Source: an uncultured Gammaproteobacteria bacterium | GTDB lineage: Bacteria > Patescibacteriota > Patescibacteriia > VMEV01 > CAYQCH01 | Assembly (NCBI GenBank): GCA_964415935.1 | Contig: CAYQCH010000003.1 | Span: 1-48,332 of the forward strand | Reading direction: 5' to 3' | Length of the DNA: 48,332 bases | Shown: positions 18,135-37,558 of the stretch, in pieces | How the letters are laid out: the number at the start of each line of letters is the position of its first letter | Numbering within the stretch: the stretch's first letter is position 1 | The notes under the pieces: generated by a model | The model's input: only the letters and a program-made list of their open reading frames with translations | The model's database searches: none | Told to the model about the DNA's origin: nothing | Made by a program: the position numbers and the translations under genes

Positions 18135-18329
18135 CTACGTCATGTCGGAGGAGTCCATGAACTGGGTCGCCCCCTCGCGACGTCCGTCGGAGCTGTCTTC
18201 GTCCGTCGGCATCTCGCGCCGGCCCGTCTTGGAGGCCAGATAGGCGCCCGACTGGTGCCTGTCCTTGCGCGCCTCCTGGCGGCGCTTGAGACGCTGCATG
18301 TCGTTACGAGCGCGCTGCGATCGGGACAT
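18135..18329 (-). CDS. small highly charged protein (64 aa), high-GC3 cassette
   Basis: The ATG is preceded by GGGGGG at about 5 nt. That SD overlaps the TAG stop of the upstream small ORF, suggesting translational coupling. Sequence MSRSQRARNDMQRLKRRQEARKDR...; no family recognised. Confidence 0.45.
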   Translation of the reverse strand: MSRSQRARNDMQRLKRRQEARKDRHQSGAYLASKTGRREMPTDEDSSDGRREGATQFMDSSDMT

Positions 18330-18338
18330 GTCGCCCCC

Positions 18339-18545
18339 CTAGCCCCTGGCCCGGCGGAGGTGCAGGTGGCGCTGCAGCGGCGCGCGCTGCGGCCGCCGGC
18401 CGATGATGATGCGGTCGGGCGGCATCACGGTGTCGCTCTCGTCGACGAGCGCGTCGATGGCCAGGTCCGTCTCGGCGGCCTTGTCGGCCATGGCCGCGAT
18501 CTTGCGGTTCCTGGTCCGGCCATCGCTCTTCTTGTTCTTCCCCAC
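18339..18545 (-). CDS. small charged protein (~68 aa from GTG 18545; an alternative ATG at 18491 gives ~50 aa)
   Basis: An in-frame GTG is preceded by GAAGGTG at 6-nt spacing. The track ORF extends to 18647, but that part coincides with the rpsO terminator hairpin. No family recognised. Confidence 0.35.
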   Translation of the reverse strand: MGKNKKSDGRTRNRKIAAMADKAAETDLAIDALVDESDTVMPPDRIIIGRRPQRAPLQRHLHLRRARG

Positions 18546-18598
18546 AGTGTTCACCTTCGGCGTAGAAACACGACCGTGCGAATCCGCTTTCTGTTTCC

Positions 18599-18661
18599 AA
18601 ACAGAAAGATTCGGATGCGCGTGCCTGGAGACGAAACCTCTCCACACATGCGCATCCGAAT
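18599..18661 (-). terminator. long hairpin plus U-rich tract 25 nt after rpsO (probable rpsO terminator / processing hairpin)
   Basis: Perfect 12-nt arms ATTCGGATGCGC (18609..18620) / GCGCATCCGAAT (18650..18661), with an inner GGAGA/TCTCC stem. The minus-strand RNA continues CUUUCUGUUU. A second hairpin (18579..18613) competes for the GATTCG segment. Confidence 0.5.
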
Positions 18662-18685
18662 CCCTTCCTATTGGATCTGCCCGGT

Positions 18686-19015
18686 TTAGGCGGCGGCCGC
18701 CTCTTCGGCTTCCTGCTGTTCGGCGGAGGCGTCCAGCACCTTTGGCGCCGTATACTTGAGTTTCAGCTTCTTGCTGAGGTCGACGTAGTTGTCGTATTCG
18801 GTCTGGCGCATGTAGTTCAGCAACTTGCGGCGCTCATTGACCTTTTTAATCAGACCGCGGCGGGAGGAAAAATCTTTCTTATGCTCCTTCAAATGCTCGG
18901 TGAGCAACTTGATTTCCTCGGTGAGGATGGCGATCTGGATCTGGGAAGAACCCGTATCCTTTTCATGGGTACGGAACTTCTTGATGATCTTTTGCTTCAG
19001 CTTCGGATCTAACAT
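18686..19015 (-). CDS. rpsO: 30S ribosomal protein S15
   Basis: GSSQIQIAILTEEIKLLTEHLKEHKKDFSSRRGLIKKVNERRKLLNYM matches the S15 signature. It has an extra acidic/Ala-rich C-terminal tail. Confidence 0.9.
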   Translation of the reverse strand: MLDPKLKQKIIKKFRTHEKDTGSSQIQIAILTEEIKLLTEHLKEHKKDFSSRRGLIKKVNERRKLLNYMRQTEYDNYVDLSKKLKLKYTAPKVLDASAEQQEAEEAAAA

Positions 19016-19109
19016 AGTCCATAAACCGCAGCGCGCGTCCGGTATTCTATGCGTTTGGCCCGACGCGAGCCGCAGAAGAGGTTAATTTATTAACGAACGG
19101 ATAATACCA

Positions 19110-20576
<1,467 letters not shown>

Positions 20577-20741
20577 ACTGGTACGAACAAAGACGCGCTG
20601 TAGCGCGTCTCGGTGTTAAAAGAGTATGCAACATTTTTTGATCGTCGTCAATGTGATTGGCCCACCATATGTCTTTGCTCATGAAAAAATGACAGCCATG
20701 TCAATGTGTCGTAAAATGTAAGGGTATCCAGACGAACCCCT

Positions 20742-21731
20742 ATGTCCCCTTCCGACAAAACACAAAACAAATCGGCTTCCGTCCTCGACCGCGCGGTCAC
20801 GGACTTTCTTGAATACCTGGAACTGGAAAAGCAGCGCAGTCCGCAGACCATCCAGAACTACGACTTTTACCTCCGGCGCTTCATCAATTTCGCGCAAGAA
20901 AACGGCAGCAAGCATCCCAAAGACATCAGCCAGGATCTGGTGCGCAAGTACCGACTGTGGCTGAACCGCCAGACCAATCGCCAGGGCGAGTCACTTAAAG
21001 CGAATACCACCAATTACCATCTTGTCGCGCTGCGCAGCTGGCTGAAGTATCTGGCCAAGCGCGACGTCCCCACCCTGGCTCCGGAAAAAATCGAGCTGGG
21101 CCGCGCGCCGCAGCGGCAGGTGGATTTTCTCGACGGACAAAACCTGGTGGAATTCCTGGACGCGCCGCTCAAATCCAAACAAGGAAAAATTTTACAAATC
21201 CGCGATAAGGCGCTGATAGAAACGCTGTTCAGCGCGGGGCTGCGCGTCTCCGAACTGGTCGGCCTGAAGCGCGACAACATCAATTTGAAAAAAGATGAAT
21301 TCACCGTGCGCGGCAAAGGACAAAAGCTGCGCGTCTGCTTCCTTTCCCATGCCGCCAAGCACTGGCTGGGCCTCTACTTTGGCATGCGCAAGGACACCAG
21401 CCCCTACTTGTTTGTACGCCACGATCGCGCCGCCAAGCGCAGCGCGGCCGAACCGCTCCCCCTCACGCCGCGCAGCGTGCAGCGCCTGGTGGAAAAGTAT
21501 GCGCGGCAGGCAGGCATCACCAAACGCATCACGCCGCATACCCTGCGCCACTCCTTTGCCACGGACTTGCTCATGAACGGCGCGGACTTGCGCTCAGTGC
21601 AAAGCATGCTCGGCCATTCCAGCATCACCACCACGCAGATTTACACGCACATCACCAACCAGCAGCTGCGCGACGTGCACAAGGCGTTTCACGACCGCAC
21701 CCGCAAAAAAAGCGCTAGGAGTTCAACTTAA
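20742..21731 (+). CDS. tyrosine site-specific recombinase (XerC/XerD family or integrase)
   Basis: SAM-like N-domain. C-terminal catalytic motifs GLRVSEL, HTLRHSFATDLL and LGHSSITTTQIYTHI. Confidence 0.85.
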   Translation: MSPSDKTQNKSASVLDRAVTDFLEYLELEKQRSPQTIQNYDFYLRRFINFAQENGSKHPKDISQDLVRKYRLWLNRQTNRQGESLKANTTNYHLVALRSWLKYLAKRDVPTLAPEKIELGRAPQRQVDFLDGQNLVEFLDAPLKSKQGKILQIRDKALIETLFSAGLRVSELVGLKRDNINLKKDEFTVRGKGQKLRVCFLSHAAKHWLGLYFGMRKDTSPYLFVRHDRAAKRSAAEPLPLTPRSVQRLVEKYARQAGITKRITPHTLRHSFATDLLMNGADLRSVQSMLGHSSITTTQIYTHITNQQLRDVHKAFHDRTRKKSARSST

Positions 21732-22260
21732 ACGAATCGACAACCGCCTCATGGTATTCCCACGGCTGGCCTGACGGCAGACTGAAAATGTATGTTCGCC
21801 CGCCCGCGGACAAAAAGTAATACGGCACTTCTTCGTTGCGCGACTCCAGCAATGCCGTCACTTTTGTACCGGAATACCCGCCGCGCGTAACAGGCTCGCG
21901 GCGCAACACCGTTACGCCGTCCACGGTGGCCAGCAAGTCAGCAGCCACGGCGACAGAATTTGCCGTCGACTCGATAAACAAGTATTTCACCTGCTCATTA
22001 CCTTCAACATTGATAACGGAAAAAAGCTTGGCGTCGCCCTCATCGAGATCTTTTGTCAGCGTCAGGCCGTCGGGCAAGCGCAAGGAAAAATCCGCCGTCG
22101 GCTCGGTCACATATCGGCTGTTTGATTCATCCAGGGATTTCTGCGCGACCTGTCCCGAAGAGTCGCTTGGCTTCACGTCAATATTGATATCTGATCGGCG
22201 GGAAATGCAGCCGGTCAATGTTACAGCAACAAAGAGGACGATGGTGATGAAACGGATCAT
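21715..22260 (-). CDS. hypothetical lipoprotein
   Basis: Trimmed to ATG 22260: MIRFITIVLFVAVTLTGC with a canonical lipobox (LTGC). It overlaps the recombinase 3' end convergently by 17 nt. Confidence 0.55.
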   Translation of the reverse strand: MIRFITIVLFVAVTLTGCISRRSDINIDVKPSDSSGQVAQKSLDESNSRYVTEPTADFSLRLPDGLTLTKDLDEGDAKLFSVINVEGNEQVKYLFIESTANSVAVAADLLATVDGVTVLRREPVTRGGYSGTKVTALLESRNEEVPYYFLSAGGRTYIFSLPSGQPWEYHEAVVDSFKLNS

Positions 22261-22446
22261 AGTGGTAGAACGTATATAAAGGTATTCGCAGTTTAAGGCA
22301 CCCGGCGCCAGGGAGCAAGAAGGCCGCAAAGCCTTTACGAAACCCCCATTTTATGTTATCATTCGCAAACTGTACGGGCCCGTAAGCAACGCTTGCGTGC
22401 CCGGCGTTCAGGCATCACGAAAGCAAGCTTTCGCAGTGCCTCACTT

Positions 22447-22523
22447 GGGCCCGTAGCTCATCTGGCTAGAGCGCCGCATTTGCACTGCGGAGGCAGCAGG
22501 TTCAAATCCTGTCGGGTCCACCA
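22447..22523 (+). tRNA. tRNA-Ala (anticodon UGC), CCA encoded
   Basis: Cloverleaf folded by hand. Anticodon stem CCGCA/TGCGG, loop TTTGCAC. The G3:U70 pair diagnostic of tRNA-Ala is present, and the T-loop is GGTTCAAATCC. Confidence 0.9.
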
Positions 22524-22529
22524 GATTTT

Positions 22530-23132
22530 ATGCCAAATCAGTTGAAAGTCATTGCCAGCATGATCATCATTGTTGCCGTTACCGCCGGTGTCAGTATTGG
22601 CATTGCCGCATTGCTTCCCGACACGCAAACATTGACGCCCGCCGAACAGGTGGAGGCGTTTACCGATCTGGCTTTTTCAGACACGACGGCATTTTCTTCC
22701 AAACCGTTCGCGCTGGAGGAAGGCTATACCATCCAGCTGGTGGATGGCTGGGAACTGGTCAGCCATACCCCCACCCGCCACGTTGATCGCTACCGCTTTG
22801 AGCGCACGGACAACCGCGAACACATTTTTACCATCAGCGTGTATAACCGCGAGCAGACCCCTCAATTCGCGGACTTAATTACCGCCCGCTACGGCGCGGC
22901 CTATTTGCGCGAACAGGCGGACGTCCAGGTTTCTGGCCTGGCCGCCAAACGCATTACCGCCGACTTTCTGGACATGGGTTCTACGGCAGACGTATTGGTT
23001 GAAGTTAACGACCAGACGTTTATTTCCCTGTACGGCGTGCGCCAGCCCTCCAGCGACAACACCCTGCGCGTGGCCAAGGAAATCAACTACATGCAGAAAT
23101 CCTTCCAGACCGGACAGACGGCTGCGCTCTAA
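22530..23132 (+). CDS. hypothetical membrane-anchored protein
   Basis: 200-aa ORF with an N-terminal TM (VIASMIIIVAVTAGVSIGIAALL). It is followed by a terminator. No family recognised. Confidence 0.55.
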   Translation: MPNQLKVIASMIIIVAVTAGVSIGIAALLPDTQTLTPAEQVEAFTDLAFSDTTAFSSKPFALEEGYTIQLVDGWELVSHTPTRHVDRYRFERTDNREHIFTISVYNREQTPQFADLITARYGAAYLREQADVQVSGLAAKRITADFLDMGSTADVLVEVNDQTFISLYGVRQPSSDNTLRVAKEINYMQKSFQTGQTAAL

Positions 23133-23151
23133 CTGCCCAAGTATGACAAAA

Positions 23152-23172
23152 CCTCCCACCGGGAGGTTTTTT
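23152..23172 (+). terminator. intrinsic terminator after 22530..23132
   Basis: CCTCCC-ACC-GGGAGG stem-loop followed by TTTTTT. Confidence 0.6.
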
Positions 23173-23190
23173 GATTGAAAAAAATCCGCC

Positions 23191-23240
23191 TAAAAAGTGA
23201 ACACCCCCGACAGAACCGTGAAAGTTCCGTCGGGGGTGTT
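23191..23240 (-). terminator. intrinsic terminator downstream of the 407-aa high-GC3 gene
   Basis: 12-nt perfect arms AACACCCCCGAC (23200..23211) / GTCGGGGGTGTT (23229..23240), extended by GAAC/GTTC. The minus strand continues CACUUUUUA. Confidence 0.65.
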
Positions 23241-23352
23241 GTGTGGAGCACCATGCCGGCAGCGTGGCCGCAGGCATGTTTACTGTTGGTCAGTCAGGCC
23301 ATACTCCATGGCCTGGCGGCTTGCCGTGTGGCGTTGCCGCGAGCGACGCGCG

Positions 23353-24576
23353 CTAGTGCGCGTTGTTGCCGCCCTCGAACGAGCTGGCCGGCGTGCCGAA
23401 GGCCGCGCCGTAGCTCGGGACGCCCGCGCCCACGAGCTGCTCGCTCTGGGGCGCGAACGGGGTCGAGCGGTTCGGCGTGGTGCTGAACGCGCGCTCGAAG
23501 CCCGAGGCCGCCGGCGCCGTCGAGTAGTCGCGGGCCAGGACCTCCTGCAGGTCCGAGGTCGCCGAGGCCAGGGCCGCGCGCTTGGTGCGCAGGTCCTTGA
23601 CCACGTTCTTGTGCCCGTTGGTGTGGGCCACCGCGATGCCGACCGTCGACATGAAGCCGGTCGGGTTGCGACGGCTCATGGCCAGCAGCTCCTCGGTGAA
23701 GGTGAAGCTGCCCGCGCCGTCCGGGTTCTGGAAGAGCTCGTCGGCCTTGCCCCAGCCCGTGCTGATCACGTCGATCAGCTTGCGGGTGGCGATGGCGCCC
23801 GCGTCGTGGCGGATGAACATCGGCGCCGCCGTCGACTGGTCGGAGACCATCGGGCGGGTGGGCATGGTGCCCACGTAGCGGACGTCGTACCCGCCCTGCG
23901 CGTTCGGGTAGAACCCGAGCACGCAGATCGAGGTGGGCGTGGCCATCGGGATGGCCGCCGAGGCGCGCTCCGTCTGGGCCAGCTGGGTCACGTCGTAGCC
24001 GTAGATGGCCACGGCGTACTTGGGCCTCTCGACCTGGGTCTTGGCGAACGCGCAGTTCGCCTTGACCCAGTCACCGCCGTAGATCCAGCCCAGCACCGCG
24101 GTGATGAACCGGGTGTTGGTGGTGCGGCCCTGGTCGTTCCAGGCGCCGTACTTGGTGAACGAGCGCCCGATCTTCACGTTGCGGATGTGCTGCTCGAGGG
24201 CCTTGAGCGTGATCACGCTCTTGCCCGCGAACAGCTCCTCGATCTTGTTCTGGAGCTGGGTCCGGACCTCGTTGATGTTGATCGGCAGGGTGATGCCGAT
24301 CGTGCTCAGGCCCTGGACCAGCATGCCGCTGATCAGGTTCAGCGCCTGCTCGGCGCTGAGGGTCTGGTCGAGGCCGCCCTCGATGCGGTTGAAGTCGACG
24401 ACGACGACGTTCACGTCCTTGCCCGTGTTGGTGGGCATGGGCGCGATGTCGTACTCGACGACGTCGTCGAGCTGGCGCTTGCTCACCGGCAGCATGACCA
24501 CGGTCATGTTGGGCGCGCCCAGCGACGCGGCGATGAGGCTGCGGATCGACGAACGACGGTTGCTCTGGAGACGCAT
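23353..24576 (-). CDS. orphan 407-aa protein with extreme GC3 codon usage; possible twin-arginine-like N-terminus
   Basis: Trimmed from ORF 23353..24882 to ATG 24576, preceded by GAAGGG at 6 nt. The G/C-ending codon bias begins exactly there. The N-terminus MRLQSNRRSSIRSLIAASLGAP resembles a Tat-type signal. No family recognised. Confidence 0.6.
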   Translation of the reverse strand: MRLQSNRRSSIRSLIAASLGAPNMTVVMLPVSKRQLDDVVEYDIAPMPTNTGKDVNVVVVDFNRIEGGLDQTLSAEQALNLISGMLVQGLSTIGITLPININEVRTQLQNKIEELFAGKSVITLKALEQHIRNVKIGRSFTKYGAWNDQGRTTNTRFITAVLGWIYGGDWVKANCAFAKTQVERPKYAVAIYGYDVTQLAQTERASAAIPMATPTSICVLGFYPNAQGGYDVRYVGTMPTRPMVSDQSTAAPMFIRHDAGAIATRKLIDVISTGWGKADELFQNPDGAGSFTFTEELLAMSRRNPTGFMSTVGIAVAHTNGHKNVVKDLRTKRAALASATSDLQEVLARDYSTAPAASGFERAFSTTPNRSTPFAPQSEQLVGAGVPSYGAAFGTPASSFEGGNNAH

Positions 24577-24777
24577 GCGAAACCCTTCTACCCAGGTTCT
24601 CTGTCCACCCCCGCCGAAATGACGGGGTATTGGAACAACCTGGATACTGGCCAGAGTCGGAGTCGAGTGAATGGCCACGATGCCATCCAATTCCCTACCC
24701 CTTCCCCAGTCAATCGACGAGTATAACTGACTGGGTAAGAGGTAGCTGTTTGTAAAGAACTGCCCCCGACTAGTTTC

Positions 24778-24798
24778 TGTCGTCATAATTTGACGACA
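24778..24798. promoter_or_regulatory. operator-like inverted repeat TGTCGTCA-N5-TGACGACA
   Basis: Perfect 8-nt arms with a 5-nt spacer, inside the ~600-nt non-coding region upstream of 23353..24576. It is related to the repeat at 24992..25010. Confidence 0.4.
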
Positions 24799-24970
24799 AT
24801 TTTTTCGAAAATGAAACGAAAAAAAAGAACCGCGAAATGCGATCCAGGAAAAACCATTCGGGACTGACAAGCGAAACCACAACCATTAAAGACAGTCGAC
24901 GTCCTTCAAGTGTTGCTGCTTCGCTTATCAGTACAAAATGGAAAGGGCTATCTGGTAACCGACAAAAGGC

Positions 24971-25010
24971 ATCCTACCAACGTCAAAAAAAGTTGTCAAT
25001 AACTGACAAC
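24971..25010 (-). promoter_or_regulatory. candidate sigma70-type promoter (TTGACA-17-TAGGAT) overlapped by inverted repeat GTTGTCA-N5-TGACAAC
   Basis: On the minus strand the -35 TTGACA is at 24999..24994 and the -10 TAGGAT at 24976..24971. The inverted repeat arms are at 24992..24998 and 25004..25010. Would imply a ~390-nt 5' leader. Confidence 0.35.
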
Positions 25011-25126
25011 AATATTTTCGTATCACTAAGGTTAGCCACATTTTTTGTCATGAAGAAAAAACACCCTGATTTATCAACAGTATCTGTGGATAAATTTTGA
25101 AATTTTTTCGATTATCGTTGTACTAG

Positions 25127-25155
25127 TTGATTATTCGCATGATGGTTGTTATAGT
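25127..25155 (+). promoter_or_regulatory. candidate promoter of tRNA-Cys (TTGATT-17-TATAGT)
   Basis: -35 at 25127..25132 and -10 at 25150..25155, about 40 nt upstream of the tRNA. Confidence 0.45.
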
Positions 25156-25193
25156 TTCTTTACAAAATGCCCTCTTTTGGGGCTATTTTTGAT

Positions 25194-25268
<75 letters not shown>

Positions 25269-25276
25269 TTTGCATA

Positions 25277-25305
25277 CAAAAAATCCCGCGCGAAGCGGGA
25301 TTTTT
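25277..25305. terminator. bidirectional terminator between tRNA-Cys and the 3D-domain gene
   Basis: AAAAAA-TCCCGC-GCGAA-GCGGGA-TTTTT: a symmetric A-run/T-run hairpin. Confidence 0.7.
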
Positions 25306-25316
25306 CGTTAGGGTGT

Positions 25317-25880
25317 TTATTCAACACCGCGGCCCTTGCCCCATTCAACGATTTCGATTTTGGCGTAGCGACGGCCGAATTTGACGGCTTCCTTATAGTC
25401 TTCCATCCAAATATCGATGTTGTTCTGGTAGCGGGTGTTCATGCGGTCTTCCACGCGGAACACCTTGGCGCCGAAATGGTCGGGAAAACGGACGCGGGTA
25501 CCGATAGGCAGGTTATTGGACGCGACCACGCCATCGCGGGTCAAGGAACCAATAGCCGTGGCATACGGTGAACCGTCAGTCTGGTTCTCCAAAGAGTTAT
25601 AGGCGGAAAGGGTCATGTAGCGGACAGCCACAGCTTCCTTGGGCGCATACAACTTGGCCTTCCAGTCCTCCTGGGCCTTGGCCAGGGATTCGCCGGTCAG
25701 CATGACCACCGAAGGGTCAGCCTGGCGAATGGACATCTGCGTGACGCCTACCCGAGCTGGCTTGGCATCAGAGGCGATAGCCGACGTCTGGGGGATCAGG
25801 ATGTTGGCGGCAAAAACCATGACCGCGACAGCCTGGCGCACCGGTGTGTTTTTGTTTTGCAAGGTGGTGTTGCTAGACAT
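25317..25880 (-). CDS. 3D-domain (MltA/RlpA-like double-psi beta-barrel) cell-wall protein
   Basis: Signal/TM, then YMTLSAYNSLENQTDGSPYATAIGSLTRDGVVASNNLPIGTRVRF...VEDRMNTRYQNNIDIWMED, typical of 3D-domain proteins. Confidence 0.75.
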   Translation of the reverse strand: MSSNTTLQNKNTPVRQAVAVMVFAANILIPQTSAIASDAKPARVGVTQMSIRQADPSVVMLTGESLAKAQEDWKAKLYAPKEAVAVRYMTLSAYNSLENQTDGSPYATAIGSLTRDGVVASNNLPIGTRVRFPDHFGAKVFRVEDRMNTRYQNNIDIWMEDYKEAVKFGRRYAKIEIVEWGKGRGVE

Positions 25881-25927
25881 AGTTTTTGCTTAAAAATGAA
25901 AAACCGTCATAACGACGGCGACCAAGT

Positions 25928-25956
25928 AATATATCACAAATATACTACTTTGTCAA
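25928..25956 (-). promoter_or_regulatory. near-consensus promoter of the 3D-domain gene (TTGACA-17-TATATT)
   Basis: On the minus strand the -35 is at 25956..25951 and the -10 at 25933..25928. Confidence 0.5.
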
Positions 25957-25990
25957 GAGTATCCGTGAAGATTGTGCTAATATTAGGTAA

Positions 25991-26018
25991 ATAAAAAGCA
26001 CCCCGTCAAGCGGGGTGC
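25991..26018 (-). terminator. intrinsic terminator after the 26035..26811 gene
   Basis: GCACCCCG (25998..26005) / CGGGGTGC (26011..26018). The minus strand continues UUUUUAUUU. Confidence 0.65.
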
Positions 26019-26034
26019 TTAGGTTAGCCTAAAT

Positions 26035-26811: not shown

Positions 26812-26815
26812 ATGA

Positions 26816-29175: not shown

Positions 29176-29179
29176 GGCT

Positions 29180-29998: not shown

Positions 29999-30062
29999 AC
30001 AATTCCCCCGAATGCAAGATCAGCTCCTGCTTGCTGTTTACGGCTTATTCCGCAAACATTAG

Positions 30063-30091
30063 ACAGTACCACAAAATTACTATTTTGTCAA
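30063..30091 (-). promoter_or_regulatory. near-consensus promoter for 29180..29998 (TTGACA-17-TGgTACTGT)
   Basis: On the minus strand the -35 is at 30091..30086 and the extended -10 at 30071..30063, within AT-rich backbone-like DNA. Confidence 0.5.
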
Positions 30092-30179
30092 TAGTTTGCT
30101 AAGATAAGCATAAAATAAGGGTATTTACGATTTTAAGCAGAGCAGGCATCATAAATGCATAGCATTGACCCCCTTATAT

Positions 30180-30560
30180 ATGGCGGAAGAGAAAGACTGG
30201 AAAGACAAATTGACGCCTGAGCAGTACCACGTCTTGCGCGAAAAAGGCACGGAAGCCCCTTTCACGGGCCAATACTGGAACCATCACGAAAAGGGCATGT
30301 ACGCCTGCGCTGCCTGCGGCGCCGAGTTGTTTTCTTCCGATGCCAAGTTTGATTCCGGCACGGGCTGGCCCAGCTTTGACAAGCCAGAGAACACCAAAAA
30401 CATCGAACTGCGCGACGACACCAGCCACGGCATGGTGCGCACGGAAGTGATCTGCAAAAATTGCGGCGGACATCTGGGCCATGTCTTTACCGACGGCCCG
30501 ACAGAAACTGGCCAGCGGTACTGTATCAACTCTTGTTCCCTGGACTTCAAAAAGAAATAA
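30180..30560 (+). CDS. msrB: peptide-methionine (R)-S-oxide reductase
   Basis: [28 protein letters not shown] and RYCINS. ATG 30180 was chosen; the track starts at TTG 30165. Confidence 0.9.
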
Positions 30561-30561
30561 T

Positions 30562-31080
30562 ATGCGCCATGACATAGACACATCCAAAAGCCATCTTACC
30601 TGGCATGCCAGCAAGGTTACCGGAAAGCATCACGGCTCTGTGGCGCTCAAATCTGGCTTTGTCGAAATCGATACCATGGGACTGCTGACCGGCGGCGAGT
30701 TCGTCATCGACATGCCCACCATTACCGACGAAGACATCACCAATGCCAGGCTCAAAGAGACGCTGGAAAATCATTTGAAGTCAGCTGACTTTTTTGACGT
30801 TGAAACATATCCGGAAGCCAGGCTGGTCATTACCAACGTCAAAACGAGCGAGAACGAAACCACCATTCTCTGCGACCTGACCATCCGCGGCAAAACCAGC
30901 ACCGTCGAATTCCCCGCGCAGATCAAGCAGGTCGATTCGCGCTGGATGGCCGATGCCACGGTGGCGTTTGACCGCACGCGCTGGGACATAACTTTCCGTT
31001 CGGGCAAATTTTTCCAGAACCTCGGCGATATTCTCATCCATGATGAAATCAAGCTGGATGTCCATGTAGAAACGAAGTAG
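30562..31080 (+). CDS. YceI-like domain protein
   Basis: Trimmed to ATG 30562, 1 nt after the msrB stop. HLTWHASKVTGKHHGSVALKSGFVEID and the later beta-rich pattern are typical of YceI. Confidence 0.75.
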   Translation: MRHDIDTSKSHLTWHASKVTGKHHGSVALKSGFVEIDTMGLLTGGEFVIDMPTITDEDITNARLKETLENHLKSADFFDVETYPEARLVITNVKTSENETTILCDLTIRGKTSTVEFPAQIKQVDSRWMADATVAFDRTRWDITFRSGKFFQNLGDILIHDEIKLDVHVETK

Positions 31081-31081
31081 C

Positions 31082-31465
31082 ATGCTGCCTGTTTTATCCA
31101 ACGCTAACCGCGATGAGCTGCAGCGCATCGCGAAGATAAAGGGATATGGCTCGTACAAACGCCATATCTTTTTATGCACCGGCGCGGGCCCCTGCACGGA
31201 CGGGCGCAGTTCCGAACATCTGTGGGAATTCCTCAAACGGCGCATCGCGGAGCTGGAACCTGATCCCGCGCATCCCACGGTCGGGCGCAGCAAGTCGGAA
31301 TGTTTGCGTGTCTGCAAACAAGGCCCGACGGCGCTGGTGTATCCGGAAGGCACGCTCTACGCGCTGCTGGACGAAGCAAAACTGGAGCGTGTCATTAGGG
31401 AGCATCTGTTGGGCGGCAGGCCGGTGGAAGAATACGCCATCATGCACGCTCCCTTGCTCCCCTAG
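31082..31465 (+). CDS. thioredoxin-like [2Fe-2S] ferredoxin domain protein
   Basis: HIFLCTGAGPC and ECLRVCKQGP cysteine pairs, followed by VYPEGTLY, matching the thioredoxin-like 2Fe-2S ferredoxin pattern. Confidence 0.6.
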   Translation: MLPVLSNANRDELQRIAKIKGYGSYKRHIFLCTGAGPCTDGRSSEHLWEFLKRRIAELEPDPAHPTVGRSKSECLRVCKQGPTALVYPEGTLYALLDEAKLERVIREHLLGGRPVEEYAIMHAPLLP

Positions 31466-31505
31466 GAACGGTACGCTACCATGGGGAGCGCAAAACGCGC
31501 ACTGA

Positions 31506-31576
31506 GCGGGATTCGTATAGTGGCAGTACGTCAGCTTCCCAAGCTGAACGCGCCGGTTCGATTCCGGTATCCCGCT
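31506..31576 (+). tRNA. tRNA-Gly (anticodon CCC), CCA not encoded
   Basis: Acceptor GCGGGAT/ATCCCGC, anticodon stem TCAGC/GCTGA, loop TTCCCAA, T-arm GCCGGTTCGATTCCGGT. Confidence 0.85.
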
Positions 31577-31627
31577 CCGTGGGCGTTTTTTTATGTCCAA
31601 ATGTCGGCGGCGTTTGACAATCCACCG

Positions 31628-31657
31628 TTGACATTTTGGAAATTTTCTGCGTATAGT
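31628..31657 (+). promoter_or_regulatory. near-consensus promoter for 31703..32356 (TTGACA-18-TATAGT)
   Basis: -35 at 31628..31633 and -10 at 31652..31657. A GGAAAGGG SD-like sequence lies before ATG 31703. Confidence 0.5.
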
Positions 31658-31702
31658 TGTTGCCACAGCTCCTCCACCAACGAGATACGGAAAGGGCCTC
31701 CC

Positions 31703-32356
31703 ATGCGGCGAATCTACGCCTTGCTCCCCGCCGTGGCGCTGTGCCTCGGCTGCTCCGCCTACAGCAACTTCAACCAGCCGGGCATGTTCCCCGAGGATCC
31801 GGAGATCCTCATGGCCGACGACCTGCAGTGGTCGGCGGACGATCTGGCCGAGTTCGGCCTGGACCGCAACGCCGTGAAGGGCAAGCCCTTCCTGCCGCCG
31901 GTCGACAACCGCCGCGACATGCGGTACTCCTTCCTGCGCCACGTCATCTCCGGCACCCGTCCGGACGGGCTGCCCAACCTGGTCGCCCCCGACGGCTACA
32001 ACCTGATGGTCTGGAAGGAGCGGCCCAGCGACGAGTTGACCGGCTGGATGCAGGTCTTCGCCTACCCCGCCGACTGGCAGCAGCGCGCGCGGCGCGGCCT
32101 GCACAGCCGCGACATCGGCTGGGCCTTCATCCGCCGCACGCATGACCTGCGGGGCTGGGAGAACGTCTCGCACGACTACCCCACCCGAACCTGGCGCCAC
32201 CCCACTCCGGCCGAGGAAGAGGTGCGCGGCGGACAGCCGACGATCTGGCACAGCCCGCGCCCGGTGCTGTGGCAGACCACCCCGTCGCCAAGCGCGGCTC
32301 CGGCGGCGGTGGCCTCAAGCCGCGTGGCCTGCCACTGCGGCCAGGTCCACCACTAG
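31703..32356 (+). CDS. exported/lipoprotein-like orphan with extreme GC3
   Basis: Trimmed to ATG 31703, since the track ORF starts upstream of the tRNA and runs through it. Leader MRRIYALLPAVALCLGCS. Almost every codon ends in G/C. No family recognised. Confidence 0.6.
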   Translation: MRRIYALLPAVALCLGCSAYSNFNQPGMFPEDPEILMADDLQWSADDLAEFGLDRNAVKGKPFLPPVDNRRDMRYSFLRHVISGTRPDGLPNLVAPDGYNLMVWKERPSDELTGWMQVFAYPADWQQRARRGLHSRDIGWAFIRRTHDLRGWENVSHDYPTRTWRHPTPAEEEVRGGQPTIWHSPRPVLWQTTPSPSAAPAAVASSRVACHCGQVHH

Positions 32357-32380
32357 GCGCCGCCCGGGCGCCATCAAGAA

Positions 32381-32422
32381 AACCGGCCTTTGTCTGACGA
32401 CGAGGGCCGGTTCTTCTTTTTT
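32381..32422 (+). terminator. intrinsic terminator after 31703..32356
   Basis: AACCGGCC (32381..32388) / GGCCGGTT (32405..32412), followed by CTTCTTTTTT. Confidence 0.6.
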
Positions 32423-32431
32423 ATAACAAAT

Positions 32432-33592
32432 TTAATGGCTGTGGACATGGCCGCCGCCGGGCGCAGGCGGATGTGCTTCGCGGCCAAACACGCGCGCGGC
32501 GATGTAGGTGGTAATGGGAACAGCAAGGATGAGCGCGGCGCTGCCGGACAACGTGCGCACAATTTCTTCCACCAAAAACTCGCTGTTGAAAATGATCCAG
32601 AGCGGAAAGTCGGTCTTGGTGAAAATAAGCAGCACCGGCAGGCTGGCGCCTACATACGCCAAAGCCAGCGTGTTGACCAGCGAGGCGATGTGCTCGCGGC
32701 CCACGGACAATCCGCGGTTGTACAGCTCATGCACGGGCAGCGCCGGGTTAGCGCGATGGATTTCATCAACCGTGGCCGCCTGCGCCGTGGTGATGTCGTC
32801 CAGCACGCCCAATGAACCGATGATGATGCCGCCCAGGTACAGGCCGCGCAAATTGATGTTCTGCAGCGGGCCTTGCAGCAAGGAAATGGAATCTTCCGAG
32901 CCCATACCGAAAATTTTGACGAACGACACCATGAGAATGGACAAAGCCGCCGAAAGAAACAAAGTAATGGCCGTTCCGGCCAGGGCCACGGTCGTGCGCT
33001 TTTGAAACCCATGCGCCAGGTATAGGGAAATAACCAAAATCATGACGCCGGAAACGAGACTGACCCACACCGGATTGCTGCCCGCTTCAATGCGCGGGAT
33101 CATGAATTCCACGATGATAATGAGGCTGAATGCCAGGCCGATCACGGAGGAAAGGCCTTTCCAGCGCCCAAACGAAATGGCCAGCAGAAAAAACGCGGCA
33201 AACAGCCAGAGCACGGCAGGCAGTCGGTACTTTTCTGCCACATAAAACTCTTCCTCGCCGTTGCGCGTAACTTTTACCACGACAACGCGCTCCCCTTCTT
33301 TTAACTTCTCCCGCTGCTCGTGATTGACCGGCAGCTGGAAGTCATGGGTAAACACTTCACCGCGGTCAGGCCCCTCGCTGATTTCCACGCGCACGGTCTG
33401 GTACGGCTGGCGGAATCCCTCAATATCCAGTTCCGTGTCAGCAAGGATTTGCACGACTTTACCGCGGTAGTATTCGTTTTTGACTTCCAGCGGCGGCAAC
33501 GGCGCTTCCCCCTGGGCTCGGCCAGGAATGGGAATGCACAACGCCGCGATAAAAATGATCGTGGAAACGAGCCGCTTCATAAGCCGCTGCAC
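32432..33592 (-). CDS. YibE/F-like integral membrane protein
   Basis: 386 aa. N-terminal TM plus a soluble beta-rich domain, then about 6 TM helices. The architecture is recalled from the YibE/F family. It overlaps the upstream gene by 16 nt. Confidence 0.55.
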   Translation of the reverse strand: MQRLMKRLVSTIIFIAALCIPIPGRAQGEAPLPPLEVKNEYYRGKVVQILADTELDIEGFRQPYQTVRVEISEGPDRGEVFTHDFQLPVNHEQREKLKEGERVVVVKVTRNGEEEFYVAEKYRLPAVLWLFAAFFLLAISFGRWKGLSSVIGLAFSLIIIVEFMIPRIEAGSNPVWVSLVSGVMILVISLYLAHGFQKRTTVALAGTAITLFLSAALSILMVSFVKIFGMGSEDSISLLQGPLQNINLRGLYLGGIIIGSLGVLDDITTAQAATVDEIHRANPALPVHELYNRGLSVGREHIASLVNTLALAYVGASLPVLLIFTKTDFPLWIIFNSEFLVEEIVRTLSGSAALILAVPITTYIAARVFGREAHPPAPGGGHVHSH

Positions 33593-34560
33593 TGCATGGC
33601 CTTGCTTAAGGCCATCGCATTATCCACCATGATGGTCATATAATTTTTGCCGGCATGCGCGTCCTCGGCGCTGATGCCCTCAATGGGATCAAGAACAGCC
33701 GTGGTGGCGCCCACTTCCCGGGCAAGCGCATCGGACAATTTGGGACTGGTCAGCGTTTCAAAAAAGATCGTGGTGATTCCCTTTTGTTTGGCCAGCGTTG
33801 CGAGTTCGCCCAACCGCTTGGCAGACGGCTGCTCCTGCGGGGAAAAACCGGCAATGGGAATAATTTCAAACCCGTACCGTCGGCCGAGGTAGGAAAACGC
33901 ATCATGAGACACGATAATTTCATTCAGGCGGCAAGATGTCAGCGCGAGCTGAAACTGGCGATGCAAACCCTGCGCGTCTGAAACCCAGAGTTCCAGGTTG
34001 TCCTCAAACTGGGCCGCATCATCCGCGAATTTTTCGCTGAGCGTTTCCGCTACGATGCGCCCGATTTCTTCCATAGCCAGCGGGTCGAGCCAGACATGCG
34101 GATCTTCCGGGCCATGATCTTCCTCATCTTCATGCGCTTCCTCACCCTCTTCTGCAGCAAGGATGGCGTACTGCGATGTCTCCAAAGCTTCGACGATATT
34201 CACGGTTTGCACGCCCTTGTCGGCCAAAGCGGGCATGAGCCGGTCTACCCAGGAATCAAGTCCGGCGCCGTTATAAAACAGCACGTCCACGTCTTGCAGG
34301 CGGACAATGTCCTGCGGTGATGGTTCAAAGTCATGGGGCTCGACGCCGCCGGGCGTTACAGTGGTGATGTCATATCCTTCACCGGCGATATGCTGCAGCG
34401 CAAAGGCCAGCGGGTAAAAACTGGCGGCCAGGCGGGGCTTTTCTCCCCCGGCATCAGGTTGCGCGACATCCGGCTGCGGCGGCCGCACCAGGCTCCAAAC
34501 ATAGAACATTCCACCCACCGCAATACATAAGGCGCCAAAAATCATTTTCCAATGTTTCAT
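33577..34560 (-). CDS. ZnuA/TroA-type metal ABC transporter substrate-binding protein
   Basis: Signal/TM, an acidic His-rich loop EEGEEAHEDEEDHGPEDPHVWLDP, and conserved DPHVWLD and HDAFSY motifs. Confidence 0.8.
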   Translation of the reverse strand: MKHWKMIFGALCIAVGGMFYVWSLVRPPQPDVAQPDAGGEKPRLAASFYPLAFALQHIAGEGYDITTVTPGGVEPHDFEPSPQDIVRLQDVDVLFYNGAGLDSWVDRLMPALADKGVQTVNIVEALETSQYAILAAEEGEEAHEDEEDHGPEDPHVWLDPLAMEEIGRIVAETLSEKFADDAAQFEDNLELWVSDAQGLHRQFQLALTSCRLNEIIVSHDAFSYLGRRYGFEIIPIAGFSPQEQPSAKRLGELATLAKQKGITTIFFETLTSPKLSDALAREVGATTAVLDPIEGISAEDAHAGKNYMTIMVDNAMALSKAMQCSGL

Positions 34561-34651
34561 ATGCCTGTAGCGTAGGCAACGGATGCCTAAAAGTCAAAAG
34601 AAAAGAGAACGCCGCCGGAAGGGTTTTTCACCCCGCCGGCGGCGCTTGAAG

Positions 34652-37558
34652 TCAACGCGGTTGATGCGCGATGACTTGCTGGAGGAAGACGCGGTCTTCC
34701 TCGGTCAGAAGCTGCGGATTGTCTCTGACGGCTGGCTGGTTCAGGAGATCCTGCGCCAGCCTGCGCGCTTCCGAAAAGGCTTCGTTGGCGCGCGCGTCCC
34801 GCAGGCGGACAAAGGCCTTGTTGCGGACGATGTAGGCCTTGACCAGCAGCACCGAGCAGCGAACGGAAACGAACGCGCTGGTGCGCTCGTCATTGACGAT
34901 GCCGTTGTACAGCGGCACCGCCCCGTCCGTTACCCGCACCATCAGCTGCGGGTCCCAGATCTCCTGGTCGCGGTCGTCGCCGATCGCAAAGATCTGGGCC
35001 TGGAAGAGCTCGACCGTTTCATCCGGGAGGATGTCCCGGTCTGCCATGAGCTCTTCGATGAGACGCAAGACCCTTGTGCGGGACTCGCGCAGGGACGCCC
35101 ACTCCCTTCGCTGGCGGTACACGCCGCTCCGGTCGATTTCGGCCTTGAGCAGCGTCATCCGCGCAAAAAACGGCTGCCGCCCCCGCAGCTTGCCGCCAGC
35201 CAGCATCTCGCCGCAGACCCGGGTGGCTTCGTCCGCAAGCGTCAGCACGCGGTCGAAGTCCCGTTCCAGCGTGGCAAGTTCCAGCTGGCAGCTCAGCTTC
35301 TGATAGCGAGCCACCGGCCCCGGCATGAGGCATTCATACCGCAGGAAAGCCGCGGCAGCCCCACGCAAATCGCGCAAAGACAGCAACGTGTCGCCCAGCC
35401 ACTGATGCGTCATGGGGAAGTCGGGGTTTTGGGCCGCCGACCGCTCCAGATACGCATAGGCCTCGCGCAGCCTGGCCGTGCGCTCCGCGGGAGCCAGATC
35501 CGACGTATACCGCCAGATGAGGAACCCGCGCAAGGCGTCGGCCAGCCAGGCCAGCTCATGGCCTGACGGCAAAGACGGAATCTCGCCCTCCGCTTCCTTC
35601 AGCAGGTTGCGGCAGCGCTGCCAGTTGCCGCGGCGATCCGCCAGCTGGCCTTCAATCAGCTTGAGATACACCCTGCCGAGGGCAAGGTACTGCTCGTCGC
35701 TGATCAGGCCCAGCAGGCGCTCGTGCCGGCCCGGCTCGTCGCTGGGATCCAGCTGCTCGGCATGGAAGATGGCGTAGAAACAGTACTCGGGCCTGCGCTC
35801 GGCCGACCCGTGCTGCACCAGCCACTGCCACTGCTCGACGCAAGCGGGCTTCATGAGGTTGAACTGCACCTGGGCCAGGGCGTACCGCGCCGGCTCATAC
35901 GAACCGTCGCGTTCCACAATGGCTTGCAGGCGCTGCTCCGCCTCTTCCCACTTGCTGGCCTTCATCAGCGACTGGCAGACCAGGAACTGCGCCGAGGTTT
36001 CGTTACGCACCCTCTGCGCGGTTTCCGCCTGCCTGGCCGTTTCCGCGGCCTGAGCTTCCAGCTGCGCTCGGGCTTCGGCCTCGTCCGCCGCCTTTGCCTC
36101 GGCTTCGGCGCGAGCTTGCGCTTCGCGCCTGGCCTTGGCAAAGAAGATGGCCACCACGGCAAAGCCGATGGCGGCTGCGGCAAAGACAGCCAGCCCGCCC
36201 ATGAGCAGCTTGCGCTGCCGCTCGGCCGCGGCTTCGCGCATCCTGGCCTGCTCCTCTTCATGCGTGGACAGCCAGTGGCTGTACGATCGGAGTTCCTTGG
36301 CCAGCGCTGCCGCGTCAGGGTACCGGTCACCCGGCTCCTGGGCCATGCACTTCTTGATGATGGCCAGCAGGCGGTCCGGATCGTACTTGGCCCGGACCTT
36401 CTGGCGGAAAACCTTCTCCGCCTCGTCCGGGAACGGGTTGAGGAGCGCATCCATGAGGGCCGCGAACGAGGCCTTCACATGGACATGCGTGCCGGTCAGA
36501 ACCAGAAATAGGATCTTTCCCAGCGAATACACGTCCGAGGCCGTGCCGATCTTCTCCAGCTCGGCGAAGGCCTGCTCCGGCGGCATGAACATGGGCGTTC
36601 CGGCTACCGTCCCCGTCTGGGTCAGGCCGACGTCGGCCTGGTTGCCCGGCCTGGGAGAGGCGCCTTGCGGCTCCGGGTCATCCGCCTTGAGCGGCTTGAC
36701 CAGGCCCAGGTCGAGCACCACCGGCCGGCCGGTCTGGTCGACCATGATGTTGCCCGGCTTGAGGTCGCGATGGACGACTCCATGCTGGTGCATGACTGCC
36801 ACGCCGTCGCAGATCCTGGCCATGGTCTCGATGCGCCACAGCATATCGCCGGACGGCCGCTTCTTCCCCATGGCCCTGTCCAGAGGCTCGCCCTGAATGC
36901 ATTCCATGGCGATGTACGGCGGCTTGTACTTGAAGTCGGCCGTATAGATGCGCACCAGATGCGGCGATGCCAGCGCGGCGGTAACTTGCGCCTCGCGCTT
37001 GAATCGCTCCGCCTCTTCCGGGCTGACGAGTTCGGGCTTGATGATCTTGATGGCGACATCAATGCCCAGGTTGTCGTCGCGGCCGCGAAAGACGGCGCCC
37101 ATGCCGCCCTCGCCGATCTTGCCCACGATGCGGTACCGGTCGATCCTGTCGGCCGGCGCGCCGGTAGGCGCTGCAGGCTGGGCCTGCTTGCCCCGGCCGG
37201 GAAGAGCCTGCGTGGACTCGTAGCCGTCGTCGTCGACGGCGGGCCTGGGCGGAGCCGCGGGCGGCTGCGGTTGGACCGCGGACGGAACAGGCTGAGGCGC
37301 CTGCCGCCCGCTGGGACTGCGCGATGGAGCCTGCGCAGCCATCCAGGCATCGACCACCTTCTCCGGCATCGTGTTGGGAACGAGCCACAGATTGCAGAAC
37401 ATGATGTGCTGCACGAGGCTGATGGCAGCCTGCCGCGCCGGCTGCTCAGCCAGGCGCTGCAGGGCCGAATCGGACAGCAGCCCATGGATGGTTTCCGGCC
37501 GGACGGCCTTCTTCTGTACCAGGAACTGGCAGAACGAGAGGACCTCGTCTCGCGTCAT
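34652..37558 (-). CDS. Hanks-type Ser/Thr protein kinase with an N-terminal extension, one TM and a ~480-aa TPR-like C-terminal domain
   Basis: GEGGMGAVF, VAIK, HRDLKPGNIM and DLG motifs. TM LLMGGLAVFAAAAIGFAVVAIFFA. AGGAG SD 7 nt before the ATG. GC3 is clearly higher than in backbone genes. Confidence 0.85.
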   Translation of the reverse strand: MTRDEVLSFCQFLVQKKAVRPETIHGLLSDSALQRLAEQPARQAAISLVQHIMFCNLWLVPNTMPEKVVDAWMAAQAPSRSPSGRQAPQPVPSAVQPQPPAAPPRPAVDDDGYESTQALPGRGKQAQPAAPTGAPADRIDRYRIVGKIGEGGMGAVFRGRDDNLGIDVAIKIIKPELVSPEEAERFKREAQVTAALASPHLVRIYTADFKYKPPYIAMECIQGEPLDRAMGKKRPSGDMLWRIETMARICDGVAVMHQHGVVHRDLKPGNIMVDQTGRPVVLDLGLVKPLKADDPEPQGASPRPGNQADVGLTQTGTVAGTPMFMPPEQAFAELEKIGTASDVYSLGKILFLVLTGTHVHVKASFAALMDALLNPFPDEAEKVFRQKVRAKYDPDRLLAIIKKCMAQEPGDRYPDAAALAKELRSYSHWLSTHEEEQARMREAAAERQRKLLMGGLAVFAAAAIGFAVVAIFFAKARREAQARAEAEAKAADEAEARAQLEAQAAETARQAETAQRVRNETSAQFLVCQSLMKASKWEEAEQRLQAIVERDGSYEPARYALAQVQFNLMKPACVEQWQWLVQHGSAERRPEYCFYAIFHAEQLDPSDEPGRHERLLGLISDEQYLALGRVYLKLIEGQLADRRGNWQRCRNLLKEAEGEIPSLPSGHELAWLADALRGFLIWRYTSDLAPAERTARLREAYAYLERSAAQNPDFPMTHQWLGDTLLSLRDLRGAAAAFLRYECLMPGPVARYQKLSCQLELATLERDFDRVLTLADEATRVCGEMLAGGKLRGRQPFFARMTLLKAEIDRSGVYRQRREWASLRESRTRVLRLIEELMADRDILPDETVELFQAQIFAIGDDRDQEIWDPQLMVRVTDGAVPLYNGIVNDERTSAFVSVRCSVLLVKAYIVRNKAFVRLRDARANEAFSEARRLAQDLLNQPAVRDNPQLLTEEDRVFLQQVIAHQPR

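Follow-up and report, generated by a model that had tools for sequence, protein, structure and literature searches.

The stretch of DNA analyzed here, which comes from an uncultured, ultra-small bacterium and is hereafter called the window (48,332 nt, contig CAYQCH010000003.1 of assembly GCA_964415935.1), is a mosaic of codon-usage classes in which certain genes carry G or C at nearly every third codon position beside genes of ordinary or AT-rich composition. Judged by its gene content, the window points to chromosomal DNA of a bacterium within Patescibacteria (the Candidate Phyla Radiation, or CPR) with a reduced genome. We favor, with moderate confidence, the view that the mosaic has at least three unrelated causes. 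The genes extreme in GC3 (the G+C content of third codon positions) would be old residents under gene-specific selection on synonymous sites, the AT-rich genes would be accessory DNA at tRNA sites, and the gene for a Ser/Thr kinase would be a separate case. The original prediction held that the GC3-extreme units had been captured repeatedly from a high-GC partner or its phages. This was not borne out: two of these units proved to be syntenic in diverged relatives, kept a GC3 of 0.92-0.99 there, and had no donor homologues in the searches described below.

The mean GC content of the window is 0.566, and 500-nt intervals span 0.38 to 0.71. Forty-eight genes were scored for GC3 after start codons and spurious antisense open reading frames (ORFs) had been corrected, and the backbone genes had a median GC3 of 0.692 (median absolute deviation 0.056). 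The outliers are listed in Table 1; the three most extreme were designated GC3x1, GC3x2 and GC3x3 (together GC3x1-3). A GC frame plot, which depends on neither strand nor gene calls, marked 18121-18600, 23281-24600, 29161-30000 and 31681-32400 together with patches in the kinase gene. Ordination of relative synonymous codon usage placed the AT-rich genes at one end of the first axis (PC1) and GC3x1-3 at the opposite end. The interleaving of codon-usage classes described in the original prediction was thus confirmed by per-gene GC3, frame plot and ordination alike. GC content at first and second codon positions (GC1, GC2) of the GC3-extreme genes was near backbone values. GC3 had already reached at least 0.85 within the first 20 codons, and the 300 nt upstream were ordinary or AT-rich. 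Three other GC-rich patches (2384-3535, 8296-11453 and 45492-47429) had normal GC3 and merely reflect amino acid compositions rich in Ala, Gly and Pro.

Relatives of two of these genes were found at the same chromosomal positions in other lineages. GC3x1 had only 4 homologues among 5.8e9 proteins and 11 among 1.84e9 representatives in an exhaustive profile search, and none of the 11 family members contained a known domain. Orthologues on contigs L002 and L003 (58% and 43% amino acid identity) adjoin the same gene of about 200 aa, tRNA-Ala(TGC) and a gene of about 204 aa, and have a GC3 of 0.99 compared with 0.60-0.64 for their neighbors; the orthologue in a fourth lineage (L081-84) shares both the synteny and the GC3 of 0.99. 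The single homologue of GC3x3 (P0007 on contig L078, 55% identity) has a GC3 of 0.92 compared with 0.56-0.69 for its neighbors. It follows MsrB (90% identity), YceI (77%), hyp127 (70%) and tRNA-Gly(CCC) in the order seen in the window. All of these informative relatives are short Logan metagenome contigs. Both proteins evolved faster than those encoded nearby, with 58% and 43% identity for GC3x1 against 74% and 58% for the neighboring hyp200, and 55% for GC3x3 against 70-90% for MsrB, YceI and hyp127.

Synonymous sites have turned over extensively in the orthologues of GC3x1 and GC3x3. At four-fold degenerate sites of conserved residues, 26-42% of third bases differed, which corresponds to 51-77% of saturation and is comparable to the 60-85% found in neighboring genes. 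Almost all of the differences were exchanges between C and G. A or T was present at only 3-4 of about 100 sites, against an expectation of about 15% if the sites were relaxing to backbone composition (deficit P = 2e-6 to 6e-4), and no amelioration toward the backbone was seen in the four lineages, all of which retained a GC3 of 0.92-0.99. Third positions have therefore turned over while G/C was retained in several lineages, which indicates that the G/C state is actively maintained. On these sequence comparisons we regard GC3x1 and GC3x3 as neither recently captured nor passive keepers of the composition of a donor, both of these options being excluded.

No homologue of the GC3-extreme genes was detected in 185,579 species representatives of GTDB, JGI metagenomes, IMG/VR, 50,697 phage records or 72,556 plasmids. 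The orphan units, including GC3x1, matched no Pfam, PHROG, PADLOC or NCBIfam family, and GC3x2 likewise had no family, phage, plasmid or viral match. Best-match taxonomy had been proposed earlier as a check on capture; no high-GC donor is visible for these orphan units.

Codon usage in GC3x1-3 is extreme. Phe, Tyr, Ile and Asn are specified by 130 C-ending and no U-ending codons, and the Sharp-type S value is at least 5.4, compared with 1.46 for the ribosomal protein genes S15 and L19. For Phe, Tyr, Ile, Asn, Lys, Gln and Arg the preference runs in the same direction as in S15 and L19 (223 codons), whereas it differs for Glu, His and the ratio C/(C+G) at four-fold sites. The GAG:GAA counts for Glu were 44:1 in GC3x1-3, 6:15 in S15 and L19, and 255:433 in the backbone; the difference between GC3x1-3 and the ribosomal protein genes was significant (P = 3e-9), with only 223 ribosomal-protein codons behind it. 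The four-fold C/(C+G) was 0.57, 0.73 and 0.54, respectively. The only A/T-ending codons in GC3x1 are CGT (four) and GGT (one), and these two are the residual A/T-ending codons in all lineages. The CGT exceptions were considered as a clear signature of tRNA selection (P = 2e-6) but were down-weighted, as 3 of the 5 lie in the Arg-rich first 8 codons, a stretch in which low structure is favored. Several of the residual A/T-ending codons fall within the first ten codons, which are rich in Arg, so this pattern is only suggestive.

The GC3-high genes also differ in their initiation signals. Shine-Dalgarno (SD)-like duplex energies of -4.5 kcal/mol or lower preceded 5 of 6 GC3-high genes and 8 of 40 others (Fisher P = 0.005; Mann-Whitney U P = 0.0065), with AAGGG, AAAGGG and GGAGGAG among the motifs seen. 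A C-rich control motif was not enriched before GC3-high genes (P = 0.85), and SD strength did not follow GC3 among backbone genes (rho = -0.11). In relatives, an SD-like motif also precedes the orthologues and not their neighbors. The genome as a whole appears to be largely SD-independent. No SD-like motif lies in the 22 nt upstream of most backbone genes, S15, L19, ABC-F, SSB and PNPase among them, and a minority have one (hyp188 at 42712-43278, hyp211 at 44801-45436, M23 at 9126-11453 and hyp313). An SD-poor backbone is consistent with the reported absence of the anti-SD sequence from about half of Parcubacteria (PMC9297842).

GC3x1-3, and possibly the two small ORFs at 18135-18647, would make up a discrete class of orphan genes that are specific to the lineage and evolve fast; two of the products look like envelope lipoproteins. 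Members of the class would be inherited vertically at fixed positions, with third positions that turn over yet stay G/C. The cause would be selection on the synonymous sites of these particular genes, exerted through the transcript or its translation, and the target may be high-output or specially regulated translation, decoding speed, or mRNA stability. The comparison with relatives demonstrates vertical inheritance and maintenance; from them we infer the selective agent. Pointers to high expression are indirect and consist of the SD-like leaders together with near-consensus promoters ahead of GC3x3 and of the GC3x1 leader.

Table 1 Features of the window discussed in the text. Coordinates are positions in the window; A3 and T3 are the fractions of A and T at third codon positions.
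Feature	Coordinates	Strand	Composition	Description
GC3xa and GC3xb	18135-18647	-		Pair of small, Arg-rich ORFs (64 and 102 aa) that share a reading frame, between S15 and an NYN gene
GC3xa	18135-18329	-	GC3 0.88	
GC3xb	18339-18647	-	GC3 0.84	
XerC/XerD-type tyrosine recombinase gene	20742-21731	+	GC3 0.75	Pfam Phage_integrase and SAM_1; best NCBIfam matches XerC and XerD
GC3x1	23353-24576	-	GC3 0.99, A3 0.00, T3 0.01, GC1 0.59, GC2 0.48	Most extreme unit; 408 codons, 407-aa orphan protein; start refined by orthologue alignment
Conserved structured RNA element and promoter	24819-25011	-		Upstream of GC3x1; from conservation, promoter/terminator scan and folding
tRNA-Gly(TCC)	27987-28061	+		Attachment site (attB) of a strain-variable element
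ATrich1	28103-29068	+	GC 0.38, GC3 0.35	321-aa orphan ORF; starts 42 nt after tRNA-Gly(TCC)
GC3x2	29180-29977 (29180-29998 as first called)	-	GC3 0.93	265-aa orphan; signal-peptide-like N-terminus ending in Cys; Pro/Ala-rich tail
GC3x3	31703-32356	+	GC3 0.94	217-aa orphan, lipoprotein-like
Hanks-type Ser/Thr kinase gene	34652-37558	-	GC3 0.84, GC1 0.70	Pfam Pkinase; one transmembrane segment; TPR-like C-terminal region
NUDIX hydrolase gene	42065-42553	+	GC 0.42, GC3 0.40	Starts 24 nt after tRNA-Val(TAC)

The start of GC3x2 was set according to the Logan gene call. At the corresponding position, contig L078 carries the first 32 codons of a gene (2-97, minus strand) with a GC3 of 0.94. This fragment encodes an unrelated, Lys-rich N-terminus without a signal peptide, which hints that the GC3-extreme state may be a property of the locus rather than of the protein family. 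GC3x3 lies 125 nt downstream of tRNA-Gly(CCC) with a near-consensus promoter ahead of it (31628-31657), and an exact-protein look-up with GC3x3 found no second strain for the kinase or NUDIX regions. The products of the GC3-extreme genes had been thought to be mostly exported or surface-exposed. This applies to the two products with N-termini that combine a signal peptide and a Cys, both of which deviate from the strict lipobox, and to the kinase with its single transmembrane segment; it does not extend to the products of GC3x1 and 18135-18647, which have no export signal.

Structure prediction for GC3x1 with AlphaFold2 (AF2) gave a pLDDT of 41 from a 5-sequence alignment and a moderately confident model (pLDDT 68) from 10 sequences. 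The latter had no Foldseek match in PDB or BFVD, and a capsid or other viral structural origin, which was considered, thus received no support from the model. GC3x1 and the ORFs at 18135-18647 are present in both the window and a sister strain (contig L085; ENA ERZ21828373 contig-100_1728, Logan ERR6226080), which is 99.63% identical over 18118-28061. No single-nucleotide polymorphism (SNP) separates the two strains in the stretch 23147-27289, which includes GC3x1, although this is a single strain pair of low power. Elsewhere in the shared region, 7 SNPs fall in S15 (18743-18944) and 11 in the Xer recombinase gene (20858-21206), nearly all of them synonymous. This clustering, set against the absence of SNPs from 23147 to 27289, resembles homologous-recombination tracts within a population.

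Located upstream of GC3x1 is a non-coding block of about 190 nt that is near-invariant in the window, L002 (about 188-392) and L003 (about 157-358), even though the downstream protein is only 43-58% identical. It comprises a near-consensus promoter (24999-24971), a long hairpin of about 90 nt (approximately 24941-24852) and a terminator hairpin followed by a U-tract (24845-24827). The predicted minimum free energy is -54 kcal/mol (z = -5.7), and RNAalifold identified compensatory changes at 3 pairs, of which the long hairpin contains 2. No Rfam family matches the element, which is a candidate for a new small RNA or attenuator leader.

The two small ORFs at 18135-18647 are separated by a TAG codon directly followed by a G6 homopolymer (18329-18345). 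The split could mean that the gene has decayed to a pseudogene, that the stop codon is read through or that the site is phase-variable. An in-frame 3-nt indel distinguishes the ORFs of the sister strain at 18146. Opposite the GC3-extreme genes run long antisense ORFs (23197-24726, plus strand; 29132-30094, plus strand; 31172-32251, minus strand), which were rejected as genes because they are stop-free shadows of a GC3 near 1. They reach 509 aa and have a GC1 of about 0.9 (0.91 for 23197-24726), and would mislead gene callers that prefer the longest ORF.

The kinase belongs to a separate, intermediate codon class distinct from GC3x1-3. Its kinase domain was recognized by PF00069 (E = 2.2e-37, residues 142-414), and a PknB-type NCBIfam model matched below its cutoff. 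The gene prefers G-ending codons, including AGG and CGG, and its choices for Glu, His and Phe set it apart from GC3x1-3 (P < 1e-3), with CAT and GAA in use. Relatives elsewhere were limited to generic kinase-domain matches of about 35%.

The AT-rich genes have a different explanation. Homology between the window and the sister strain stops exactly at 28061, the 3' end of tRNA-Gly(TCC). At the position that ATrich1 occupies in the window, the sister strain carries a 6.2-kb segment (L085 556-6724) with a GC content of 0.36-0.48, bounded by two full copies of tRNA-Gly(TCC) (L085 481-555 and 6725-6799). A 362-aa phage-type integrase (Phage_integrase; L085 5562-6650) adjoins the tRNA, and the island also encodes a 220-aa ORF, a DUF2326 protein (586 aa), an MC6-domain protein and small ORFs; this cargo looks defense- or mobilome-related. 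Beyond the second tRNA copy lies a HIT/DcpS gene that is absent from the window. An integrase-bearing island flanked by a tRNA duplication in a 99.63%-identical strain indicates that the tRNA-Gly(TCC) site is an active, strain-variable integration hotspot. The only relatives of ATrich1 are hypothetical proteins of 24-31% identity on plasmids of Polaromonas, Streptomyces and Kitasatospora; the ORF probably derives from an integrative element, either as cargo or as a remnant. In the window, no repeat of at least 9 nt of either tRNA was found downstream of the AT-rich genes, so no att repeat is left, and no integrase adjoins these units. The NUDIX gene had only generic NUDIX relatives on plasmids (28-33%), and exact-protein look-ups with RluD and the cupredoxin found no second strain for the kinase or NUDIX regions. 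Accessory DNA at a tRNA integration site is directly evident at tRNA-Gly, and the position and composition of the NUDIX gene suggest the same at tRNA-Val.

Directly upstream of tRNA-Gly(TCC), in both strains, is a small GIY-YIG nuclease gene (27625-27939, plus strand) with AT-leaning codons; at -2.7 on PC1 it is the third most AT-like gene. Logan contigs end at tRNA genes, at 28033 within tRNA-Gly(TCC), at 41304 at the end of tRNA-Leu and at 41984 within tRNA-Val, as would be expected if the assembly graph branched between strains at sites of integration into tRNA genes.

Proximity to tRNA genes had been proposed for the deviant units in general. The window contains 6 tRNA genes, every one on the plus strand. 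Only 4 of the 7 units, not 5, lie within 0.7 kb of one, and this association is not significant in the window (hypergeometric P = 0.125). GC3x1 lies 618 nt from the nearest tRNA gene and is divergent from it, GC3x2 is 1119 nt away, the kinase 3.1 kb and 18135-18647 3.8 kb. The idea of gene capture at tRNA genes thus holds for the AT-rich class, as shown by the strain-variable tRNA-Gly site, and fails for the GC3-extreme class that was its core. The statement that integrases and transposases are missing was accurate for the sites themselves, but a tyrosine recombinase is encoded at 20742-21731. It is the sole recombinase in the window, has backbone composition, occupies the same place in contigs L080 and L085, and is probably a housekeeping enzyme, being of the XerC/XerD type. 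A GC3 heterogeneity that was genome-wide and tied to expression level had been named as grounds for refuting the original prediction; the outcome comes close to this, being a codon-level property of particular genes, but a simple tie to expression did not emerge.

Among the genes of the window are those for type IV secretion (PrgI and VirB4/HerA-like); PNPase, S15, L19, SSB, CCA-adding enzyme, RluD, Gmk, thymidine kinase and MGMT; and MsrB, YceI, ZnuA, YibE/F and numerous small exported orphan proteins. The type IV secretion-like cluster (1-7701; a VirB4/HerA-like ATPase, PrgI and large orphan membrane or surface proteins) continues beyond the start of the window, has backbone composition and is typical of CPR epibionts. 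With ABC-F as anchor, the nearest reference genomes were metagenome-assembled genomes of CPR bacteria (62-67% identity; labeled Doudnabacteria, Parcubacteria and Moraniibacteriota), which had no synteny with the window and no equally extreme genes (maximum GC3 about 0.8-0.88). With the GC3x1 family or YibE/F as anchor, no related loci were found in GTDB representatives or JGI metagenomes.

Independent assemblies span most of the composition breakpoints. Logan contigs from SRR15237813 are 100% identical to the window over 28033-32122, 32719-41304 and 41984-48307, and Logan contig L001 spans both boundaries of the kinase gene. Contigs of the sister strain (L080 and L085) cover 18118-28061 at 99.6%, and the junctions on either side of GC3x1 and GC3x3 recur in diverged relatives from other runs. 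Coverage by a second assembly thus extends to all breakpoints but those within 32122-32719 (the 3' end of GC3x3), at the tRNA-Val/NUDIX junction and within 18092-18135. Chimeric assembly, named earlier as a way in which the capture idea could fail, is thereby excluded at most breakpoints. Abrupt shifts in composition along a metagenome-derived contig are a classic reason to suspect that GC-rich and AT-rich pieces of other organisms were joined in silico, but with these contigs in hand, and with the same junctions present in relatives, an assembly or binning chimera has a negligible chance of accounting for the mosaic.

Recent, repeated capture of single genes from a high-GC partner or phages, near tRNA genes and by an unseen mechanism, is very unlikely as an account of the GC3-extreme units, and for GC3x1 and GC3x3 it is largely refuted. 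It draws on their foreign-looking composition, on their orphan and partly envelope-associated products, on SD-like leaders typical of GC-rich bacteria that use SD sequences, on the many islands in CPR genomes (PMC12455944) and on the genuine hotspot at the neighboring tRNA site. Against it stand the synteny in diverged relatives, the extreme GC3 retained despite 51-77% four-fold saturation, the lack of homologues in the reference genomes, phages, plasmids and viral contigs searched, and the lack of att repeats, integrases or transposases at the GC3-extreme sites. GC content at the different codon positions correlates with genomic GC, and a GC1 of 0.59 for GC3x1 is far too low for a genome with a GC3 of about 0.99. 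The element seen to integrate in this lineage is AT-rich, and the association with tRNA genes is not significant. A second rival is an older event: the ancestor of a small clade may have gained the genes, together with their ribosome-binding sites, from a GC-rich, SD-using donor, with the codon style then kept by selection. We consider this possible but doubtful. The very narrow distribution (11 matches in 1.84e9 representatives, none in GTDB representatives), the donor-like character of both the SD-like leaders and the G/C-ending codons, and the kinase gene, in which GC is raised at all three codon positions and AGG and CGG are used as in GC-rich genomes, would all fit. No donor homologues are detectable, however, and GC3x1 has a backbone-like GC1; a force that maintains the pattern gene by gene would be needed all the same, so that the transfer adds an event and leaves the puzzle in place.

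GC-biased gene conversion (gBGC) has reportedly been documented in bacteria. If the loci were hotspots of recombination, as genes for surface proteins may be when selection favors their diversification, repair with a bias could push all free sites to G/C. A force indifferent to C versus G would explain the backbone-like four-fold C/(C+G) and the frequent C-G exchanges; the proteins are fast-evolving, and the SNP clusters in S15 and Xer show that recombination occurs in the population. Conversion is nevertheless an improbable cause, since the enrichment begins within 20 codons of the start beside AT-normal upstream DNA, GC1 and GC2 are barely shifted, no paralogous cassettes were found and the SD-like leaders are left unexplained. 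Moreover, the SNP-free stretch of 23147-27289 includes GC3x1 while its neighbors carry SNP clusters, a contrast of low power as it rests on one strain pair.

Gene-specific selection on synonymous sites, the explanation we prefer, also has evidence to contend with. The pattern in GC3x1-3 is not simply an amplified ribosomal-protein bias, and it looks more like a force that separates G/C from A/T than like matching to tRNAs, both as judged against 223 ribosomal-protein codons. GC3-extreme genes evolve faster than their neighbors, opposite to what is usual for highly expressed genes. Relatives cover 2 of the 5 GC3-high units (GC3x1 and GC3x3), with a 32-codon hint for GC3x2, and the genomic coverage is that of the 48-kb window. 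The SD scores presume a canonical anti-SD sequence, although the 16S rRNA gene lies outside the window and about half of Parcubacteria lack that sequence. A more ambitious version of selection would be a second translation regime, in which lineage-specific envelope and orphan genes with almost 100% G/C-ending codons and SD leaders have long been selected within an SD-poor CPR bacterium; we put this forward only tentatively. Such genes might amount to a codon- and SD-defined regulon, whose mRNAs are translated or stabilized apart from those of the rest of the genome, which is an equally speculative proposal. In an extreme variant, which is extremely unlikely, a GC-rich host cell that uses SD sequences would supply the ribosomes and tRNAs to which these signals are matched, much as T-DNA genes are matched to the plant.

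Small-genome symbionts are thought to have weak selection on codon usage, and the extreme GC3 is unexpected here for that reason. The size and sharpness of the effect are unusual for any bacterium, with a GC3 of 0.99 beside 0.6-0.7 and its retention after near-saturation of synonymous sites. Composition methods are the main route by which horizontal gene transfer is recognized in uncultured bacteria, yet the most alien-looking genes of a CPR genome can be old residents, a caution for composition-based calls of horizontal transfer in Patescibacteria. The genuinely mobile DNA at the neighboring tRNA site is AT-rich. If envelope proteins do have a separate regime of translation or mRNA stability, this would flag the genes most important to the epibiotic lifestyle and provide a testable example of codon-defined regulation. 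In the literature, no description of such an extreme-GC3 gene class in CPR bacteria was found.

Several known systems invite comparison. The AT-rich genes resemble cargo of tRNA-targeting integrative elements of the tyrosine-integrase type in that only 42 nt separate ATrich1, and 24 nt the NUDIX gene, from the 3' end of a tRNA gene and both deviate in composition, and the element of 6.2 kb at the tRNA-Gly(TCC) site of the sister strain encodes an integrase next to the tRNA and comes with a complete duplicate of that tRNA. The sites in the window differ in having one gene each and no integrase or att repeat, and can at most represent cargo or remnants; this model does not suit the GC3-extreme units. 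Composition-based island calls in Patescibacteria, which flag ribosomal proteins and EF-Tu as acquired (PMC12455944), concern the same phylum and likewise use GC and codon deviation to detect horizontal transfer, whereas here synteny shows that a composition outlier can be an old resident.

The GC3-extreme genes come closest to two other phenomena. The Borrelia vls locus is an example of a GC-rich antigenic-variation locus. Such loci and gBGC (Lassalle et al. 2015) share with the genes described here a raised local GC3, indifference to C versus G, and fast-evolving genes that are partly surface-exposed; the sharp boundaries at start codons and the lack of donor cassettes and of raised strain-level diversity set our genes apart, and a GC3 shift of +0.25-0.30 far exceeds reported effects of bacterial gBGC. 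Translational selection as in E. coli and Pseudomonas aeruginosa similarly affects the synonymous sites of particular genes only, is evolutionarily stable and accompanies strong ribosome-binding motifs. The direction here is that of the two ribosomal protein genes for codons ending in a pyrimidine (NNY), Lys and Gln, and the leftover T-ending codons are CGT and GGT. The differences are an S of at least 5.4 compared with 1.46, preferences at Glu, His and four-fold C/G sites that are opposite or unrelated, and proteins that are fast-evolving orphans instead of conserved housekeeping proteins. CPR bacteria would not be expected to show strong codon selection linked to growth rate. The GC3-extreme part of the mosaic resembles translational selection or gBGC yet lacks defining features of each, and it is far stronger and sharper than either usually is.

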